Assembly: GCA_020344015.1 (NCBI GenBank)
Contig: CP070812.1
Coordinates: forward strand, 2,068,092 to 2,132,091
Direction: 5' to 3'
DNA: 64,000 nucleotides
Source of the DNA: Gemmatimonadota bacterium
GTDB lineage: Bacteria; Gemmatimonadota; Gemmatimonadetes; Palauibacterales; KS3-K002
The number at the start of each line of letters is the position of its first letter. Positions within the stretch are counted from its first letter, which is position 1. The notes below the pieces were generated by a model. The model saw nothing but the letters and a program-made list of their open reading frames with translations, did not search any database and was not told the origin of the DNA. Position numbers and translations under genes: made by a program. Positions 10,355 through 36,207 of the stretch are shown piece by piece.

Positions 10355-10774
10355 ATGGCTCTGAGCGCGTTTGGCGATAAGTCGAGGACGCCACGGCCCA
10401 CGGAGCTGAAGAAGACGCTCGGTCGGACGAGCGACCTGTGGGATAAGCTGAAGGACCACCTCGAATCACAGTATCAGCCGCTATCCGAGAAGTGGAGTTT
10501 CGCCGGACAGAAGTGGGGGTGGTCGCTGCAGCTGAAGCAGAAAAAGCGGACCATCTTATATATGACCCCACGCGAAGGGTTTTTCTCGACGGGTTTTGTA
10601 CTGGGAGAGAGAGCGGTGAAAGCCGCGCACGCGAGCGATTTGTCGGACTCGGTATTGGCCATGATCGACAGCGCGAAGAAGTACGTCGAGGGGAGGGGCG
10701 TTCGTATCGAGGTCAGGACCAAGAAGGACCTCGACACAACAAAGAAACTCGCCGCTATCAAGATGGCGAAGTAG
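10355..10774 (+). CDS. DUF3788-like hypothetical protein
   Basis: 'GGAGGTGAG' RBS before the ATG at 10355. Basic 139-aa protein. Confidence 0.45.
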   Translation: MALSAFGDKSRTPRPTELKKTLGRTSDLWDKLKDHLESQYQPLSEKWSFAGQKWGWSLQLKQKKRTILYMTPREGFFSTGFVLGERAVKAAHASDLSDSVLAMIDSAKKYVEGRGVRIEVRTKKDLDTTKKLAAIKMAK

Positions 10775-10798
10775 GTACTTTGAAGGGGAGGGACACTC

Positions 10799-11152
10799 AT
10801 GAGCCAGGCGGAACAGGACCGTCGTGTCGACTATATCGAGTTTGGGGTCACGGATATCGGCAAGGCTAAGAGATTCTACTCTGAAATCTTCGGCTGGGAG
10901 TTCACCGATTACGGTCCGGATTACACGAGCTTCCATGATGGCAGACTTGCCGGCGGTTTTCGCGCAGCACCGGAAGTCACACCAGGCGGCCCACTGGTCG
11001 TACTCTACGCCACGAACCTGGAAGACATCGAAGCGAGAATCAAAGAATCCGGAGGCCGGATCGTTCAGGAGACGTTCGAGTTTCCGGGCGGCCGGCGCTT
11101 TCACTTCACCGACCCGAGCGGAAATGAGCTGGCGGTCTGGTCGGATCGTTGA
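10799..11152 (+). CDS. VOC-family (glyoxalase) protein
   Basis: 'VDYIEFGVTDIGKAKRFYSEIFGWEF' VOC N-terminal motif. 117 aa. Confidence 0.75.
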   Translation: MSQAEQDRRVDYIEFGVTDIGKAKRFYSEIFGWEFTDYGPDYTSFHDGRLAGGFRAAPEVTPGGPLVVLYATNLEDIEARIKESGGRIVQETFEFPGGRRFHFTDPSGNELAVWSDR

Positions 11153-12051
11153 GTCAGAAGATTGAACGGGTGCGGTTTACCATGAACTGGGAGGGAGCGT
11201 TACCGGTTCTCGTCGCGCTGGCGGTTGGCATCTCGCCGCAGGCGCGTGCTCAGGAAAGTACTGCCGTAGTCGGGCCGGTCGAGCATGTCTACGCGTCGCC
11301 CGGAGGTCTGGACCTGAAGGCCTACGTGTTCGCGCCCGCAAACGAGGACGGTAGGGCGCCGCGGTCCGCTATAGTAGTCTTTCACGGTGGCGGTTGGCAC
11401 ATCGGGTCCGCGGAGTGGGCCTTCGGGAGGGCGACGCACTTTGCCGAACTTGGCATGGTCGCCATCGCTGCTCAGTACCGTCTGTCGGACCAGAAGTCGA
11501 TCACGCCGCTGGAGGCGATGGCCGATGCGCGGGCGGTGATTCGCTGGGTACGCTCGAACGCCGACCGCTTAGGGATCGCATCGGATCGTATCGCCGCCTA
11601 CGGCTGGTCGGCTGGCGCACACTTGGCGGCCTGTGCCGCGATCTTCGAGGACTCTCTCCCCAACGTGACCGTCAGCAACGCACCCAATGCGTTGGTCTTC
11701 GTCTCGCCGGCCGTTTCACTGGAGGGAGACAGCTGGCCCCAGCGACTTCTGGGCGAACGGGCGAGCGTCGATGAGATCTCGCCGGACATGCACGTTCGCG
11801 AGGGGTTGCCGCCCACGATCATCCTTCAAGGGCGCACGGACACGGTGACACCGCTGGCGGGCGTACAGCGTTTCTGCGACCGGATGCGCGAGGCAGGCAA
11901 TCGTTGTGACCTTCATGTCTATGACGGAGTCGGCCACCTGTTTACCCCGTCGACTGAGCCGGACGACGGATTGCCGAATCCAGATCCGGAAGTGCAGGCG
12001 GAGGCATACCAGAGGGCGGACGAGTTCTTGCGGTCGCTCGGATTCTTGTGA
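11149..12051 (+). CDS. Alpha/beta hydrolase (esterase/lipase, HGGG type) with signal peptide
   Basis: 'VVFHGGGWHIGS' oxyanion motif, 'GWSAGAHLA' nucleophile elbow, and a C-terminal 'DGVGHLF' His. Confidence 0.75.
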   Translation: MSQKIERVRFTMNWEGALPVLVALAVGISPQARAQESTAVVGPVEHVYASPGGLDLKAYVFAPANEDGRAPRSAIVVFHGGGWHIGSAEWAFGRATHFAELGMVAIAAQYRLSDQKSITPLEAMADARAVIRWVRSNADRLGIASDRIAAYGWSAGAHLAACAAIFEDSLPNVTVSNAPNALVFVSPAVSLEGDSWPQRLLGERASVDEISPDMHVREGLPPTIILQGRTDTVTPLAGVQRFCDRMREAGNRCDLHVYDGVGHLFTPSTEPDDGLPNPDPEVQAEAYQRADEFLRSLGFL

Positions 12052-22837: not shown

Positions 22838-23305
22838 ATGGGAAGATTCGTGCTGGGTTTCGTGCTGGGCGTAGTCGCCGGGGTCGTGCTGACGGTGGTG
22901 TTCTTCGTGGCGGTGGCGACCCAGGATGGGCTGTCCCTGGTATCGACGATCTACGCACCGGAAGAGGTCCAAGTCGGTGAGCCGTTCGCGTTGCGGATCG
23001 TCGCGTACAACCCTCACCCGGAAGAAGTACAGCTGCACAGTATCGACATAGACGAGTCGTTCATCGGTGCGTTCGAGGTGCTGGCGATAGAGCCGCGACC
23101 GACCGATTCGACGCGCGTCCCGTTCCTGGACCAGAAGAGCTGGTTCTTCGAGCGCGATGTAGGACCGGGTGACAGCCTGGAGGTCACCTTCACGCTGAGT
23201 CCGCTGCAGGTAGGAGTGCCGGTGGGAAACGTCGAGATCTGCAACACCGCGGTGGACTGCACGCCGCAGAGCCCTAGGCTCGAGGTCATCGGCAGATCGC
23301 CATAG
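22838..23305 (+). CDS. Hypothetical secreted/membrane-anchored protein
   Basis: N-terminal TM helix followed by a beta-rich domain. Confidence 0.45.
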   Translation: MGRFVLGFVLGVVAGVVLTVVFFVAVATQDGLSLVSTIYAPEEVQVGEPFALRIVAYNPHPEEVQLHSIDIDESFIGAFEVLAIEPRPTDSTRVPFLDQKSWFFERDVGPGDSLEVTFTLSPLQVGVPVGNVEICNTAVDCTPQSPRLEVIGRSP

Positions 23306-23341: not shown

Positions 23342-23542
23342 ATGAGCGACAGCCCCAACCCGAAGACATGCCTCGCCTGCAAGAGGGGGGCCGACGTGAC
23401 ACCGCTGATCCCTTTAGAGTACCGAGACTCTACGATCTGGATCTGCCCGCAACATCTGCCCGTGCTGATCCACGATCCGGCACAGTTGATCGGTATACTA
23501 CCCGGCGCTGAGGGTCTGAGCCCGGCGGACCACAAGGACTGA
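23342..23542 (+). CDS. Hypothetical small Cys-containing protein
   Basis: 66 aa with 'CLACKRG…ICPQH'. 'AGAGGA' RBS. Confidence 0.35.
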   Translation: MSDSPNPKTCLACKRGADVTPLIPLEYRDSTIWICPQHLPVLIHDPAQLIGILPGAEGLSPADHKD

Positions 23543-23633
23543 GGCGAATCAGTGTATCCGCTAGTCTCGTCTGCGGCAGCGCGGTATGTTGAAGCAACCC
23601 TATCCTGCGATGAAATGTGATAGGAGGTGCGCT

Positions 23634-24233
23634 GTGAGACTGAACGCTCCCCTCAGGATCGCGCCGACCGTGGCGCTGCTGGTGTTCCTCCTTGCCCCGC
23701 CAGGACTGTTCGCCCAGAGCGCGCGGTTCGAGCAGTTCGCCGAGACCAAGCCGACGGCAGGTGAGATCGCTCCCGACTTCACGCTGGAGACTTTGGACGG
23801 CGAAGGTTTCACTCTCAGTGAGGTCTACGCCGAGCAACCCGTCGTAATCGAGTTCGGCTCGTACACTTGACCCCCATTCCGTCGGCGGTCCGCCGACGTC
23901 GAGAAGATACGTGAGGAGTTCGAGAGCCAAGTCAAGTTCATTATCCTCTATCAACGTGAAGCGCACGCCGGCCAGATGATGTTCAGCGAGATCGAGCAGC
24001 CCGAGACGTACGAGCAACGCAAGGCACTGGCCGAGAAGACGTGCGATGAGCTTCATATCGCGACGACCGTCGTGATCGACGACATGGAGAACACGGTTCG
24101 CGAGGCTTACGGTGGATTGCCGAACAGCGCGTACATCATCGACAGGGGAGGGGTGATCGTTCACAAGGAGGCCTGGGCGCGACCGACTGAGTGGCCGGAC
24201 GTGCTTCGCGGTCTAGTGGAGGAAGAGAGCTAG
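23634..24233 (+). CDS. Iodothyronine-deiodinase-like thioredoxin-fold selenoprotein (in-frame UGA = Sec at 23868-23870), secreted
   Basis: 'AGGAGG' RBS 5 nt before the GTG at 23634. Signal peptide (…LFAQS). 'PVVIEFGSYT-U-PPF…FIILYQREAH' matches the deiodinase 'PLVLNFGSCTUPPF…FLIIYIEEAH' motifs. The two ORF-track pieces (23586-23870 and 23976-24233) are in the same frame and are joined by a single TGA. SECIS-like hairpin directly downstream. Confidence 0.75.
23880..23898 (+). promoter_or_regulatory. Bacterial SECIS-like hairpin starting 10 nt 3' of the UGA
   Basis: cgtcggc-GGUCC-gccgacg. 7-bp perfect GC-rich stem with a G/U-containing apical loop, positioned like the fdhF SECIS relative to the UGA. 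Confidence 0.55.
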
Positions 24234-24256
24234 GCGGGGAGTACGGCGCGCGAGTT

Positions 24257-24298
24257 GGCCCAGCGGGAAGCTCATCTTCCGCTGGGCCATTGTTTGTC
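24257..24298 (+). terminator. Intrinsic terminator after the selenoprotein gene
   Basis: ggcccagcggga…cccgctgggcc 12-bp stem (one G.U) with an 8-nt loop, followed by ATTGTTTGT. Confidence 0.5.
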
Positions 24299-24369
24299 GG
24301 CCCCACCCCCACCACCCTTCATAACCGCTGTGGCCGAACACTAGCCTACCTATTATAGGAGGTTCCGTC

Positions 24370-28356: not shown

Positions 28357-30603
28357 ATGACGGAGCACTCAGACCGTTTGCGTTCAGCCCTGGCCGACCG
28401 CTACGCCATCGAACACGAGCTGGGTAGCGGCGGTATGGCCGTCGTATACCTCGCCGGCGATCTTCGGCACGACCGCCAGGTAGCTGTGAAAGTCCTCCGT
28501 CCCGAGCTCGCCGCCGCCATGGGTGGGGATCGCTTCCTGCGCGAGATCAAGCTCACCGCGAAGCTCAATCACCCGCACATCCTGCCGTTGCTCGATTCCG
28601 GGGAAGCCGACGGGTTCCTCTACTACGTGATGCCGTACGTGGCGGGCGAGTCGCTGCGGGGACGACTGGAGCGCGAGACCCAGCTCCCTGTGGACGAGGC
28701 GCTGCGCATCACGCAACAGGTGGCCTCGGCCCTGGACTTCGCCCATCGCCAGGACGTGATCCACCGGGACATCAAGCCGGAGAACATCCTGCTCCATGAA
28801 GGCGAAGCGATGGTGGCGGACTTCGGGATCGCGCTGGCGGTGAGCGCGGCGAGAGGCCAGCGGCTGACGGAGACGGGTGTCTCGGTGGGTACGCCGGAGT
28901 ACATGAGCCCAGAGCAGGCGCTGGGCGAGGGGGAGCCGGACGCGCGGAGCGACATCTACAGTCTGGGTTGTGTGCTGTACGAGACGCTGGTGGGCGAGCC
29001 GCCGTACACGGGTCCGACGGCGATGGCGGTGTTGGCGAAGCGGTTGAGCGATCCGGTGCCGAGCGCGCGGCGGTTGCGGGCGGCGATCCCGGAGCCGATG
29101 GACGCGGCGCTGCTGCGGGCGCTGGCGAAGGAGCGTGCCGACCGGTTCGGGAGTGCGGGTGAGTTCGCGGAGGCGTTGGCCGCGGAGGCGGCTGAGGAGA
29201 CGGAGGCGGTGAAGTCGATTGTGGTATTGCCGTTCGAGAATCTGAGCCCCGATCCGGACAACGCGTTCTTCGCAGATGGACTGACGGAGGAGCTGATTGC
29301 CGACCTCTCGAAGCTCCGGGCGCTGCGTGTGATCTCGCGAACCTCGGCGATGGCGTTCAAAGGCACGAGCAAGAAGGTCCCGGAGATCGCGGAGGAGTTA
29401 AACGTTCGGTACGTGTTGGAGGGGAGCGTTCGGCGTGCGGCGAATAGTGTGCGTATCACCGCCCAGCTAATCGAGGCGGCGACGGATGCGCACCTCTGGG
29501 CCGAGAAGTACAGCGGCACGCTGGACGCCGTCTTCGACATGCAGGAGCAGGTGTCCCGAGCGATCGTCGACGCGCTAGAACTGGAATTGACGGGAGTCGA
29601 GGACCGACAGATCGCTAAGCGACCGATCGCAGACGCGCGGGCGTACGACTGCTATCTGAGAGCTCGAGCTGCGATCTGGCATGTTGCGGAGGGAGGTCTT
29701 GATGAGGCCGCGCGAAATTTCGAGGAGGGTCTCGCGATTGTCGGTGATAATGCGCTGCTCTACGCCGGTCTAGCCCATGTCTGGCTCGAGTACGTACGCA
29801 CTTGGATCAAGCACGAAGATGAGCTTGCGAGGGCAGAAGACTATGCCAACAGGGCGCTGAGTCTCGATCCCGACACGGCGCTGGCGTGCGTCGTGTTGGG
29901 AGTCGTCGAGTACCTGCGCGGGAAGGGGAAGGAGGGTCTGCCCTGGCTCAAGCGGGCGCATATTCTGGATCCGAATGACCACGAGATCCACCACTGGTCG
30001 GGCTGGGCTTACATACTAGCGGGAAGGACGTCCAGCGCCTTCCCGCTCGCCCAACGCATGATCGAGCTGGATCCACTCAACCCTCTTAATGTCTTCCTGG
30101 GAATCGTACACTTCTACGCGGGTCAGTTCAACGAGGCCGTCGAGTTGGCGAGCAAGTTCGAGTCGCCGGCGGCACTGGACCTGCCGTGGTATCGATGGTG
30201 GGCAGCCTATTTCCTGGTCTATGCCGAACGCCCGGAAGAAGCGCTGGACCTCCTGGAGCCGATTGAGCGGACGACCGCAACGGACCTTTTCACCCAGAAC
30301 GCTCGATTCTTGCGGTACGCGCTGCGGGGAGAGAGGGATCGGATCCCCGAGTTATTGACCGATACTTTCGTGGCGCAGGAGCGGAGAGACGCGGCGGTGT
30401 CTTGTTGGGCCGCAACGTGCTACGCGATGCTCGACGACTACCAGCAGGCGCTCGACTGGCTCGAGAACGCCGTGGACCGCGGGTTTCTCAACTACCCCTA
30501 TCTCGCCGAGCACGACCCTTTCCTGGCCAAGTTCCGCGATGAACCGCAGTTCAAGGAACTAATGGTCCGCGTGAAACGCGAATGGGAGCAGCTTGAGGTT
30601 TAG
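28357..30603 (+). CDS. Ser/Thr protein kinase with C-terminal TPR/tetratricopeptide-like domain
   Basis: 'LGSGGMAVVYLA…AVKVL', 'HRDIKPENILL', 'DFGIA', 'GTPEYMSPEQ' Hanks subdomains. 748 aa with a TPR-like tail. Confidence 0.85.
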   Translation: MTEHSDRLRSALADRYAIEHELGSGGMAVVYLAGDLRHDRQVAVKVLRPELAAAMGGDRFLREIKLTAKLNHPHILPLLDSGEADGFLYYVMPYVAGESLRGRLERETQLPVDEALRITQQVASALDFAHRQDVIHRDIKPENILLHEGEAMVADFGIALAVSAARGQRLTETGVSVGTPEYMSPEQALGEGEPDARSDIYSLGCVLYETLVGEPPYTGPTAMAVLAKRLSDPVPSARRLRAAIPEPMDAALLRALAKERADRFGSAGEFAEALAAEAAEETEAVKSIVVLPFENLSPDPDNAFFADGLTEELIADLSKLRALRVISRTSAMAFKGTSKKVPEIAEELNVRYVLEGSVRRAANSVRITAQLIEAATDAHLWAEKYSGTLDAVFDMQEQVSRAIVDALELELTGVEDRQIAKRPIADARAYDCYLRARAAIWHVAEGGLDEAARNFEEGLAIVGDNALLYAGLAHVWLEYVRTWIKHEDELARAEDYANRALSLDPDTALACVVLGVVEYLRGKGKEGLPWLKRAHILDPNDHEIHHWSGWAYILAGRTSSAFPLAQRMIELDPLNPLNVFLGIVHFYAGQFNEAVELASKFESPAALDLPWYRWWAAYFLVYAERPEEALDLLEPIERTTATDLFTQNARFLRYALRGERDRIPELLTDTFVAQERRDAAVSCWAATCYAMLDDYQQALDWLENAVDRGFLNYPYLAEHDPFLAKFRDEPQFKELMVRVKREWEQLEV

Positions 30604-30607
30604 AGCG

Positions 30608-32068
30608 ATGACTACGCCACCGGAACGGGACCAAACGATAGAACGTCGCGGCGAGCGGGCGCTGCTGGTGGCGGTAGAAGGCCAGAAAGGGACGGCGCGG
30701 TTCGTCGGAAACTGCCGCATCGGTCGCGCGCCGGATAACGACCTTGTCATCGAGTCGCGCTCGGTGAGCCTCTACCACGCCGAGGCCGTGCTTGAGGGCG
30801 GAAGCTGGCAGCTGCGTGACTTGGGCAGCACGAACGGAACCGTAGTCTCCGGCCAGCGGATCGATCGCATCACTCTGGGTGGGCCGACGCGCGTGCACCT
30901 AGGTTTCGAGGGCCCGAGGCTGACGCTGACGCCCGAGGGCCTGGAGGGGATGGCGGAAGCCGAGCCGACGCTCGTGCCGTCGGAGAGCGCCATCGTGAGG
31001 CGCTACTTCGCGCCGCGTGCGCCGAAGAACATTGGGACTCATACTGCGGCGCTGCGCCGAGCGTTCGCCAATATACAGAGACGACGCACTCATAAGTACG
31101 CGGCAGCGCTCCTGGCCGTCGCGACGTTCGGTCTGGCCGCCGGCAGCTACGCCTACCTACTACACAAACGGATGCAGAGGCAACGCTCCGCGGCGGAGAG
31201 CTTGTTCTATGCCTCGAAGGACATCGAACTCGCGCTCGCCAAATTGGAGGGCAGCGGGGACGAGCGGCAGGCTCAGCAGGCACGCCACGCCGAGTTCGAA
31301 AAACAGTATCAGGACTTTCTGAAAGAACTCGGCATCTACAGTGACGCGACACCGGAAGAAGTGCAGCTGGTCTACCGGGTGGCGCACCGGTTCGGCGAGT
31401 CGGAGGTCAACGTTCCGCAGGATTTCGTGGACGCGGTTCTCACCTACGTCAGACTTTGGAAGACATCGCCGCGGCTTGAGGATGCCATGGAGCGGGCGCA
31501 GCGCAACGGCTACGGCCAGCGGATCGCCAAAACGATGCTGGAGCACGGCCTGCCACCCGAGTTCTTCTACCTCGCATTGCAGGAAAGCGATCTACGAGTG
31601 GAGGCGACGGGTCCCGAGACGCGGTACGGGATCGCCAAAGGGATGTGGCAGTTCGTGCCGGGGACCGCGCGCGACTACGGTCTCAAGACGGGTCCTCTGG
31701 TGGGAGTCAGACGGCCTGATTCCCTGGACGAGCGGCACGACTTCGAGAAGTCGACGCGGGCGGCGGCGCGCTACCTGCGGCGGATCTACACGACCGACGC
31801 TCAAGCATCGGGCCTTCTGGTGATCGCGTCGTACAACTGGGGCGAATCGAACATCCTGCGGCTGGTCCGCTCGCTGCCCGAGAACCCGCATGAGCGTAAC
31901 TTCTGGCGACTGCTCGACAAGTACCGCGAGCAAATTCCGCAGGAGACCTACGACTATGTCTTCAGCATAGTCTCGGCCGCGGTCATCGGCGAGGACCCGG
32001 AGCTTTTCGGGTTCGATTTCGACCCGCCCTACGACCGTCCTGAGATCGTAGCGGCCAGCGGAGACTAG
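30608..32068 (+). CDS. FHA domain - TM - lytic transglycosylase (SLT) domain protein
   Basis: N-terminal FHA ('GRAPDNDLVI…LRDLGSTNGTVVSGQRI'). One TM helix. C-terminal SLT domain ('ETRYGIAKGMWQFVPGTARDYGL', 'SYNWGESNI'). Starts 5 nt after the kinase stop. Confidence 0.75.
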   Translation: MTTPPERDQTIERRGERALLVAVEGQKGTARFVGNCRIGRAPDNDLVIESRSVSLYHAEAVLEGGSWQLRDLGSTNGTVVSGQRIDRITLGGPTRVHLGFEGPRLTLTPEGLEGMAEAEPTLVPSESAIVRRYFAPRAPKNIGTHTAALRRAFANIQRRRTHKYAAALLAVATFGLAAGSYAYLLHKRMQRQRSAAESLFYASKDIELALAKLEGSGDERQAQQARHAEFEKQYQDFLKELGIYSDATPEEVQLVYRVAHRFGESEVNVPQDFVDAVLTYVRLWKTSPRLEDAMERAQRNGYGQRIAKTMLEHGLPPEFFYLALQESDLRVEATGPETRYGIAKGMWQFVPGTARDYGLKTGPLVGVRRPDSLDERHDFEKSTRAAARYLRRIYTTDAQASGLLVIASYNWGESNILRLVRSLPENPHERNFWRLLDKYREQIPQETYDYVFSIVSAAVIGEDPELFGFDFDPPYDRPEIVAASGD

Positions 32069-34968: not shown

Positions 34969-36207
34969 ATGCAGCAGTCACTGACTATGGGTGGGAACAC
35001 TCTTCCGCGGTTTCTCAGCTTCTTATCCGGCATTGGCATGGCGGTCTTCTCGATAATGACGATCGACCACTATTATTCCGCCAACTATCCGGAGTCGATC
35101 TTCGAGGGCTCGTTCTGCGATATAAGCGCTTTCTTCAACTGTGACAGCTCGGCCTACGCGGCAATTTCTGCGATCGGAGGTGTGCCGCTCGGCTACTTCG
35201 GCCTGGTCGTCGGAGCGCTGGTGGCACTGGGCGTGGTTCTGCCGTCGCTGAGCTTCGAGAGAACGAACAAGGCGATCTCGCTGCTCAACGCGGTCGGCGT
35301 TGTCGCCCTCTTCATCTATACGGTCTTCTTCCTGGGCAGCCTTTGCCTGCTATGCACTGGATTCTACGTGTTCTCCCTAGTCAGCTTCTTCCTGTTCTGG
35401 AAGCACGGTGTCGACAGAGAGTTGGGATTCCTGGCCGACTGGTTCCGACCGTCGGTCAAGTTACTGGCGACGTTCGCCGCGCTGGGTCTGTTCGGGGCCT
35501 ACGCCTTCACGTTCTACACCGATGCGAGGCAACTCGCACAGTCGGGCGGGGTGGCGACGCGGGCCGTAAAGGAGTTCTACAATCTGGAGCCAGTGGAATG
35601 GCCGAGCTTCATCTCGCCGCTCTGGACGGCGCAGTCGACCGAGCACTTCGAGGACGCACCGATCCGGATCGTGGAATACGGGGATCTGCTCTGCTCCGAT
35701 TGTCTGATACTGTATAGGCAACTGAACGAGCTGAAAGCCGAGTTCGAGGGGAAGATCAACATCGCCTTCCAAATGTTCCCGCTCGAGGCCCAGTGCAACG
35801 ACGTTGTGGAGAAGGACCTGCACCCCGGCGCCTGCGATGTGTCGTACATGGCGGCGTACGATCCGGACAAGTTCGTGGCGATCCACGATGAGATCTTCGA
35901 GAACCTCCGGCTGGCGAAGCGGCAGGCGGAATGGCGGGCCGATCTGGCCCGGCGTTTCGACGTGGAGGCAGCGCTCACCGACTCGGCGACCATCGCTCTG
36001 GTCGACCGCATGATCCAGACCGGCCGCGAATACGAGAAGACGCACGAGCGCTTCTCGTATGGCATCAGGTCAACGCCGACGATGATCGTCAACAACCGGA
36101 TGATCATCGGAACGCTGCCGATCGAGCAGTTGCGCGCCGTATTCCAGGCGCTGGTCGATGAGCACGAGTCCGGCGAGCGTCGGTTTATCGAGAACTGGGA
36201 AGAGTAG
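34969..36207 (+). CDS. Vitamin K epoxide reductase (VKOR)-DsbA/thioredoxin-like fusion protein
   Basis: N-terminal five-TM VKOR domain with 'CDISAFFNC' loop cysteines and 'CLLC' in a TM helix. C-terminal thioredoxin-fold domain with 'CSDC'. Confidence 0.75.
   Translation: MQQSLTMGGNTLPRFLSFLSGIGMAVFSIMTIDHYYSANYPESIFEGSFCDISAFFNCDSSAYAAISAIGGVPLGYFGLVVGALVALGVVLPSLSFERTNKAISLLNAVGVVALFIYTVFFLGSLCLLCTGFYVFSLVSFFLFWKHGVDRELGFLADWFRPSVKLLATFAALGLFGAYAFTFYTDARQLAQSGGVATRAVKEFYNLEPVEWPSFISPLWTAQSTEHFEDAPIRIVEYGDLLCSDCLILYRQLNELKAEFEGKINIAFQMFPLEAQCNDVVEKDLHPGACDVSYMAAYDPDKFVAIHDEIFENLRLAKRQAEWRADLARRFDVEAALTDSATIALVDRMIQTGREYEKTHERFSYGIRSTPTMIVNNRMIIGTLPIEQLRAVFQALVDEHESGERRFIENWEE

Follow-up and report, generated by a model that had tools for sequence, protein, structure and literature searches.

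We analysed a 64,000-nt stretch of contig CP070812.1 from a Gemmatimonadota bacterium (assembly GCA_020344015.1, positions 2,068,092 to 2,132,091 of the forward strand), referred to here as the window. At 23634-24233, on the plus strand, it carries a gene for a deiodinase-like protein of predicted thioredoxin fold that is probably a selenoprotein. The sole interruption of its reading frame is a TGA at 23868-23870, and the frame closes with a TAG at 24231-24233. Read through, the coding sequence comprises 199 codons plus the stop, with a GTG start and a predicted selenocysteine (Sec) codon at position 79, and the 199-residue protein reads ...VVIEFGSYT-U-PPFRRRSADVEKIREEFESQVKFIILYQREAH... across the interruption. 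Two open reading frame (ORF) pieces, 23586-23870 and 23976-24233, share this one frame.

The GTG at 23634 is preceded, at a distance of 6 nt, by the Shine-Dalgarno sequence AGGAGG (23622-23627, plus strand). In the upstream-frame translation, this hexamer encodes RR, which is retained in close orthologues. Because the GTG is likewise conserved in close orthologues and the upstream ATG at 23586 is not, being an Ile codon in three of the related loci (L002, L009, and L031), the GTG is the likely translation start of the gene. Downstream, an intrinsic terminator is predicted at 24256-24299 (plus strand), with a 13-bp stem containing 9 GC pairs at 24256-24289 and an 8-nt loop, followed by TTGTTTGT; no other strong terminator-like site occurs in the region. 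An earlier note on this DNA, made from its letters alone, had described two same-frame pieces split only by the TGA at 23868, a GTG start linked to a ribosome-binding site, and an intrinsic terminator at 24257-24298. We reproduced its coordinates and the read-through peptide it quoted, and the start and the terminator were recovered essentially as it had placed them.

We scanned one genome per GTDB species for orthologues and found 32 loci, nearly all in Gemmatimonadota metagenome-assembled genomes (MAGs), with a few labelled Acidobacteriota, Zixibacteria, or simply "bacterium." In 30 of the 32, which derive from separate MAG assemblies, a TGA occupies the identical codon in the same frame, within the motif FGS[YF]T-TGA-PP[FY]RR, and one tandem paralogue carries it as well. 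The 30 TGA-bearing orthologues are 54-88% identical to the window protein, and those at 85-88% lie in the MAGs JBDHJU01, JBDHKT01, JASFTI01, and CAYFSW01. Mean amino acid identity to the window is 74% over the 40 residues before the TGA and 69% over the 40 after it. Substitutions at codon positions 1, 2, and 3 number 176, 179, and 539 upstream of the TGA and 240, 190, and 484 downstream. Since changes are concentrated at the third position on both sides, the two halves are under purifying selection as one protein. In more distant homologues, at 30-39% identity (P0026-P0034, P0058, and P0068), the Sec position is occupied by Cys (FGSYTCP).

Immediately downstream of the TGA, the transcript is predicted to form a bacterial selenocysteine insertion sequence (SECIS) hairpin (23880-23898, plus strand). 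The hairpin starts at the 10th nt after the UGA and can be drawn as an 8-bp stem (CGUCGGCG/CGCCGACG) with the loop GUC or as a 7-bp stem with the loop GGUCC. Bacterial SECIS elements have been defined as stem-loops directly 3' of the UGA, within the coding region and with a G in their small apical loop (PMC1088965); the window hairpin, with its 8-bp stem and 3-nt loop that begins with G, fits this definition. From the TGA to position +51, 31 sequences align without gaps, and columns 13-20 pair with columns 24-31. Standard pairs are formed by 96.7% of the cells at the hairpin (30 distinct sequences), a proportion that falls to 19-70% when the 3' arm is slid by 1-3 columns. Compensatory double changes occur in five of the eight pairs, for example from U-A to G-C or A-U, from G-C to A-U or U-A, and from C-G to A-U or U-A. 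In 500 column shuffles, the observed pairing or covariation score was never reached, and RNAalifold predicts the same helix independently. The first loop base, 17 nt after the UGA, is G in all 31 sequences. Because the compensatory changes alter the encoded peptide (RRRSADV, RRQAVDV, RRKASAV, RRLATVV, and RRQVAVG), it is the RNA structure, not the peptide, that is conserved here. By itself, such a hairpin could be due to chance in GC-rich DNA; on the comparative sequence evidence, chance is excluded. Thus, two central claims of the earlier note held up: Sec at the catalytic position within a Sec/Cys pair is matched by the TGA in 30 orthologues and the Cys in distant homologues, and the SelB-type SECIS at 23880-23898 recurs in the same register in all orthologues.

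Four Cys-form homologues served as controls and form 6, 2, 5, and 1 of the eight pairs at the homologous position. The hairpin is not kept in the three that encode a different peptide, and the control with six pairs encodes the near-identical peptide RRQSADV. A Cys-form gene from a Gemmataceae MAG (L033:2842-3507, P0029) encodes CPPFRRQSADVE after the active site and keeps 6 of 8 SECIS pairs, either as a by-product of the shared peptide or as a fossil SECIS after conversion of Sec to Cys. A window-wide scan for a TGA with coding sequence on both sides and a hairpin of this kind returned only the site described here, plus one antisense artefact, and same-frame adjacent ORF pairs across the window yielded no further selenoprotein candidate.

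Automated annotation reads the gene differently. Our protein search mostly returned proteins of 109-117 amino acids that span the C-terminal 54% of the query, which are the products of gene callers stopping at the TGA, and two JGI gene calls (P0001 and P0006) carry W at the Sec codon. Public annotation of the clade is systematically wrong (P0001, P0006, and P0002-P0025), consisting mostly of C-terminal fragments, with Trp at the Sec codon in the two JGI calls. If the TGA were a true stop, the locus would be a pseudogene or two genes, one for a short secreted peptide and one for a C-terminal ORF from the ATG at 23976. This is hardly credible: automatic callers do annotate the 109-117-residue fragments, some as "deiodinase-like protein" or "peroxiredoxin family protein," and no Sec machinery is seen in the window, but a disabling stop would not be fixed at one codon in 30 species-level lineages with both flanks under purifying selection, and it would split one thioredoxin-fold domain exactly at the catalytic residue. 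Moreover, the 35 codons from the TGA to the first ATG encode conserved protein and take in part of the family-defining Y-x-x-E-A-H motif, the hairpin covaries, and downstream of the TGA there is no start codon with a ribosome-binding site.

We give as little weight to the reading of UGA as Trp, Gly, or Cys, without Sec, through a reassigned code or near-cognate read-through. The two JGI calls with W agree with it, as does the finding of no Sec machinery genes in the window. However, of the coding-like ORFs, 13 of 41 in the window and 97 of 208 in the related loci terminate with TGA, and no TGA lies inside a Pfam-complete gene. TGA is therefore an ordinary stop in this lineage, and the genetic code is not reassigned. 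The interrupted codon is also the catalytic Sec/Cys position of the family and is followed, at SECIS distance, by a covarying hairpin with an invariant loop G. A reassigned code had been considered after a sample of 19 ORFs contained one TGA stop, and it was rejected by the larger survey. Among coding-like window ORFs of at least 150 amino acids, the stops are TAG (20), TGA (13), and TAA (8), and TAG ends 13 of the 19 Pfam-supported ones; in the related loci the counts are TGA 97, TAG 81, and TAA 30. A dominance of TGA is expected at 63% GC.

Several results can be set against a SECIS-dependent selenoprotein. The single-sequence fold of the hairpin is not significant (z = -0.67), a measure that says little in GC-rich coding sequence. 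No Rfam family matches it, either at the gathering threshold over the whole window or in a permissive search of 23820-23960, although the library used yielded no bacterial SECIS match at any threshold; we do not count this result against a SECIS. Finally, selA, selB, selD, and tRNA-Sec were not found in the 64-kb window or in approximately 430 kb of related loci. ARAGORN detected no tRNA genes of any kind in the window, nor did it detect tRNA-Sec in the 32 related loci, regular expressions for SelA, SelB, and SelD signature motifs matched nothing in six-frame translations of either, and Pfam scans of 20 window ORFs revealed no sel genes. These searches agree with the earlier statement that no selA, selB, or selD genes and no tRNA-Sec were seen in the window. 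Our literature search on Sec utilisation in Gemmatimonadota found nothing specific. Because of the UGA conservation and the SECIS covariation, we nevertheless consider it very unlikely that the source genome lacks the Sec machinery. Taking both sides together, we estimate a probability of roughly 0.9 that 23634-24233 is a genuine SECIS-dependent selenoprotein gene of the deiodinase-like family.

For family searches, we used the read-through protein with Cys substituted at the TGA. It matches the Pfam family T4_deiodinase (PF00837) with 68.8 bits (E = 5.6e-19), where the cutoff is 27, and the match covers profile positions 68-214 of 237. AhpC-TSA is matched over its full-length profile at 38.2 bits against a threshold of 26 (1.5e-9), well under the PF00837 score, and Redoxin at 34.9 bits, so that these two profiles score about half of T4_deiodinase. 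The protein misses the cutoff of the NCBIfam model NF038285 (deiodinase_rel, a hypothetical equivalog of 347 amino acids), with 130.3 bits against 250. The match is confined to profile positions 175-325, and nothing here corresponds to the N-terminal half of NF038285; because just the C-terminal half of the profile is covered, the selenoprotein falls outside this equivalog. The family is large, with 724 cluster representatives (50% identity) matching the profile at E <= 1e-30. Three proteins at the top of the representative search (P0036, P0037, and P0040) were rejected as deiodinase-like, since they consist of multi-domain WCGPC TlpA-like repeats whose partial matches are summed. Together with P0114 and P0130, they have an unusual architecture, in which 843-1717 amino acids comprise four to six TlpA-like thioredoxin domains with WCGPC, arranged in tandem.

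The best sequence matches in the PDB are mouse iodothyronine deiodinases, Dio3 (4TR3, 1.6e-11) and Dio2 (9H48, 1.5e-10), and in both alignments the interrupted codon pairs with the catalytic Sec/Cys. The deiodinase motifs FGSYT-U79-PPF and Y106-Q-R-E109-A-H111 are present and aligned with the same residues of Dio3 and Dio2; Y106, E109, A110, and H111 do not vary among 19 homologues, Cys forms included. As a structural model, we used the AlphaFold2 prediction (mean pLDDT 90.1) for P0001, a homologue 71% identical to the window protein. Foldseek likewise ranked Dio3 (2.1e-11) and Dio2 (4.7e-11) first for this model, followed by ResA, DsbE, CcmG, TlpA-like proteins, Etrx, and SdbA; the ResA-type matches reached 7e-10 with an rmsd of 2.0-2.1 Å, and Bcp1 was also among the fold matches. 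Membership in the deiodinase family, as initially suggested, is thus borne out by profile, sequence, and fold. The mature domain of 172 residues has a predicted thioredoxin/peroxiredoxin-like fold with Sec79 between strand β1 and helix α1.

The protein is predicted to be exported. Residues 1-27 (VRLNAPLRIAPTVALLVFLLAPPGLFA, followed by QS; 23634-23714, plus strand) fit a Sec-type export signal, with a 12-residue hydrophobic core (mean Kyte-Doolittle 2.68) and a cleavage-type site after residue 27, between LFA and QS. In all orthologues with an intact N-terminus, the start codon lies 3-16 residues before a 12-residue core (mean Kyte-Doolittle 2.2-3.2), which is followed by a Pro- or Ser-containing segment and then by a site of a small residue and Q (AQ, SQ, or GQ). 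A twin-arginine motif is absent from the N-terminus. The signal peptide proposed before thus has a predicted counterpart in every orthologue in which it could be seen, and the N-terminus fits a Sec-type signal peptide and periplasmic export. Elsewhere in the family, N-termini vary: P0027, P0029, and P0068 are signal-like, P0032 and P0058 start at the domain, and many proteins carry extensions of 150-300 residues.

The mature protein has a single Cys, Cys137 (24042-24044, plus strand). Exactly one Cys is found in the mature protein of 28 of 29 orthologues; its distance from Sec is 58 residues (KTCDEL), or 57 residues in a single subclade (RCRxEL). Cys137 is a candidate resolving Cys, as suggested by the analogous distal Cys in Dio and by 2-Cys peroxiredoxins (Prx) (PMC11592359). 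The deiodinase-defining network of Ser76, Thr78, Tyr106, Glu109, and His111 is intact; these residues have been proposed as the deiodinase proton relay, and we took their roles and those of the thyronine-binding residues from the same source (PMC11592359). No equivalent was found of Dio3 His219, a residue implicated in thyronine binding: its partner is Arg129, or Pro123 if the Dio2 alignment is transferred, and although the Dio3 and Dio2 alignments disagree locally here, neither places a His at this position. Nor was an equivalent found for the distal Cys239 of Dio3, which aligns with Thr144 in the HMMER alignment. Dio3 Arg275 (Lys in Dio2), likewise implicated in thyronine binding, lies beyond the HMMER alignment, and extension by hand brings it to about the invariant Trp181. 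The segment before strand β3 is G-L-P-N-S, a cis-Pro-type loop as in ResA and TlpA, where vertebrate Dio has F-E-R-L-Y, and the Dio-specific loop-D is approximately 5 residues shorter. A possible GPx-like arrangement of Gln107, Asn164, and Trp181 is no more than a lead.

Bacterial deiodinase-like selenoproteins with a bacterial SECIS have been described since 2005, when four Sec and six Cys sequences were reported from the Sargasso Sea (Zhang, Fomenko & Gladyshev 2005, PMC1088965), and the locus is therefore a further member of a known family. Subsequently, a count in GOS gave 22 Sec-containing deiodinase-like sequences (PMC2398784), and prokaryotic selenoproteome reviews of 2022 and 2026 include the family (PMC9312934 and PMC13188914); the 2026 review describes the functions of such families as largely unknown (PMC13188914). 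The window protein shares with these proteins PF00837, a UGA-encoded Sec, a SECIS just downstream with a G in its small loop, Cys homologues, and a predicted redox function. In contrast, the motif given for the family's representative is UxxC (PMC9312934 and PMC13188914), whereas the window clade shares U-P-P-F with animals, a motif that contains no Cys. The clade adds a predicted cleavable signal peptide, the single distal Cys, and a concentration in Gemmatimonadota, and none of these features, nor the U-P-P-F motif, is stated in the papers on the family that we consulted. The window clade is thus a distinct exported UPPF subclade of the known family, whose members share the signal peptide, T-U-P-P-F, one distal Cys, a SECIS of 8 bp whose triloop begins with G, and the concentration in Gemmatimonadota. 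The gene leaves the general picture of Sec decoding and of the family unchanged; it provides a clean, comparatively validated bacterial selenoprotein gene that current pipelines mis-annotate, and its SECIS alignment of 31 sequences could serve as the seed of a lineage-specific covariance model.

Comparison with other relatives places the clade more precisely. Vertebrate Dio1-3 (4TR3 and 9H48) share FGSxT-U-PPF, Y-x-x-E-A-H, and the Trx/Prx-like fold with an N-terminal β-hairpin module, at approximately 24% identity. They differ in having an N-terminal membrane anchor instead of a predicted cleavable signal peptide, and a SECIS in the 3' untranslated region instead of a bacterial in-frame one. 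His219, Arg275, and Cys239 of Dio3 have no aligned equivalents in the window protein, which has GLPNS in place of FERLY and a shorter loop-D. TlpA, ResA, CcmG, and DsbE share an exported thioredoxin-fold domain of similar size and the cis-Pro-type loop, and match the P0001 model with Foldseek values of 7e-10 to 1e-7 at an rmsd of approximately 2-3 Å. In known systems, these proteins depend on a membrane electron shuttle. TlpA and ResA have C-x-x-C where the window protein has U-P-P-F and Sec forms in general have U-P-P-[F/Y] or U-P-Y-F; the window protein also has E-A-H. Peroxiredoxins carry the motif P-x-x-x-T/S-x-x-Cp and a catalytic Arg. In comparison with atypical 2-Cys Prx (PrxQ/BCP), S-x-x-U (Ser76-x-x-Sec79) corresponds to T/S-x-x-Cp, and the distant Cys could resolve the intermediate; however, the conserved Prx Pro, at position -7, is Glu72 (the E of V-I-E-F-G-S), and the catalytic Arg is replaced by Asn/Ser in GLPNS.

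We propose the following model, which infers the insertion of Sec, the processing of the protein by cleavage and export, what Cys137 does, and both reductant and substrate. Translation would begin at GTG 23634 behind AGGAGG, decode UGA 23868 as Sec, and end at TAG 24231, with transcription ending at the terminator at 24256-24299. The hairpin at 23880-23898 would present its invariant loop G, 17 nt past the UGA, for recoding by SelB-GTP-Sec-tRNA(Sec), which in bacteria uses an apical loop of this geometry. The signal peptide of approximately 27 residues would be removed, and the mature protein would reside in the periplasm. There, it may act as an exported Sec-dependent two-electron reductase with a ping-pong cycle. 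The selenolate would attack a small periplasmic substrate at an electrophilic atom, which could be the oxygen of a peroxide, an organohalide's halogen, or a sulfur, to yield an Se-X intermediate, Cys137 would resolve this to a selenenylsulfide, and a periplasmic thiol reductant of the CcdA/DsbD-dependent TlpA/ResA type would regenerate the enzyme. The cycle is drawn from the conserved Sec/Cys pair, the analogy with deiodinases and peroxiredoxins, and the structural neighbours, and we regard it as an even bet.

Three observations count against parts of this cycle: Cys137 does not fall where Dio3 has Cys239 or Dio2 has Cys205; no neighbour conserved among the 31 loci examined points to a reductant or a substrate; and the protein lacks the Arg and Pro canonical for Prx, which makes a classical peroxiredoxin less likely. 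We consider three substrate classes roughly equal, each on its own somewhat improbable: hydroperoxides and other small electrophiles; organohalides; and disulfides or sulfenates, either of proteins or of low molecular weight. Thyronine is very unlikely as a substrate.

One specific alternative to the general cycle is a protein-disulfide or sulfenate reductase dedicated to a single periplasmic client, much like TlpA, ResA, or CcmG, with Sec replacing the nucleophilic Cys of CxxC. ResA, DsbE, CcmG, TlpA-like proteins, Etrx, and SdbA do come directly after Dio in Foldseek, the N-terminal signal points to an extracytoplasmic location, the GLPNS loop lies at the expected cis-Pro site of a thioredoxin fold, and UPPF resembles motifs of the WCPPC/WCEPC type. 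However, the position of the second CxxC Cys has no Cys in any Sec form (it is Phe in this reading), and because that Cys is replaced, the usual intramolecular disulfide would be impossible. Both the E-A-H motif and the Pfam scores, with PF00837 at 68.8 bits and Redoxin and AhpC-TSA at 35-38, assign the protein to the deiodinase family, and no cytochrome-maturation or Cu-chaperone gene is a conserved neighbour. We regard such a dedicated reductase as unlikely.

The other is a periplasmic reductive dehalogenase that removes I or Br from halophenolics, in which the selenolate would abstract X+ and the ring would be protonated through the Ser/Thr/Tyr/Glu/His relay. Dio3 and Dio2 are the nearest relatives by both sequence and structure, the proposed proton-relay residues are kept, with Y106, E109, and H111 invariant in distant homologues (roles from PMC11592359), and most related loci come from environmental MAGs. 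Against this, His219 and Arg275 of Dio3 have no equivalent in the best alignments, loop-D is approximately 5 residues shorter, and a cis-Pro-type GLPNS loop, as in ResA and TlpA, stands where vertebrate Dio has Arg. The ResA-type match is almost as good structurally (7e-10, rmsd 2.0-2.1 Å), no dehalogenation-related gene is a conserved neighbour in the 31 loci, and no bacterial member has been assayed (PMC13188914). A dehalogenase is also an improbable outcome in our judgement. The earlier note had suggested reductive dehalogenation or some other Sec-dependent redox chemistry in the periplasm; the export signal supports the periplasmic part, but dehalogenation is only one option, as no equivalents of His219, Arg275, or the distal Cys239 align and ResA, TlpA, and CcmG are near matches.

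Extending this idea, the exported U-P-P-F clade might be a periplasmic selenium-dependent dehalogenase of natural halophenolics (I/Br) and the bacterial functional ancestor of thyroid-hormone deiodinases, which we put forward as a long shot. If true, it would provide a cofactor-free, non-corrinoid route of dehalogenation in the habitats of these MAGs. Returning to the exported Sec-dependent reductase in general, a small soluble member of the family with one Sec/Cys pair is a convenient candidate for asking whether deiodinase chemistry predates thyroid hormones.

The related loci include additional and damaged copies. In L013 (JAZGAL01), the tandem paralogue (TGA at L013:10917, gene at approximately 10760-11360) lies 323 nt downstream of the orthologue at L013:10001-10597 and has its own signal peptide, an in-frame TGA (VFGSYT-U-PYFRWRSADAE), and a hairpin with 8 of 8 pairs. 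Two unlinked copies occur in each of CAZZEL01 (L024 and L026) and JALGVQ01 (L021 and L029). Among damaged-looking copies, L009:2070-2621 has an internal deletion of approximately 15 residues, L031:1175-1692 loses the frame after FESQITF, L029:2393-2833 lacks the segment bearing the conserved Cys, and L030 and L032 are C-terminal remnants only; these five may be pseudogenes or MAG assembly errors.

Synteny across the 31 loci is limited to close relatives, which share a creatininase, a fucosidase, and an arginase-family gene; no partner is universal. Directly upstream of the selenoprotein gene, at 23342-23542 (plus strand), is an ORF of 66 amino acids with CxxC...C, and further upstream, at 22838-23305 (plus strand), is one of 155 amino acids with an N-terminal membrane helix. 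Neither has a Pfam match, and both are conserved only in the closest relatives. Approximately 11 kb from the selenoprotein gene, at 34969-36207 (plus strand), a VKOR membrane domain is fused to a DsbA/thioredoxin domain, which constitutes an oxidative, disulfide-forming system of the cell envelope. At 28357-32068 (plus strand), a Ser/Thr protein kinase with TPR repeats (748 amino acids) overlaps the next gene, which encodes a fusion of FHA and lytic transglycosylase (SLT) domains.

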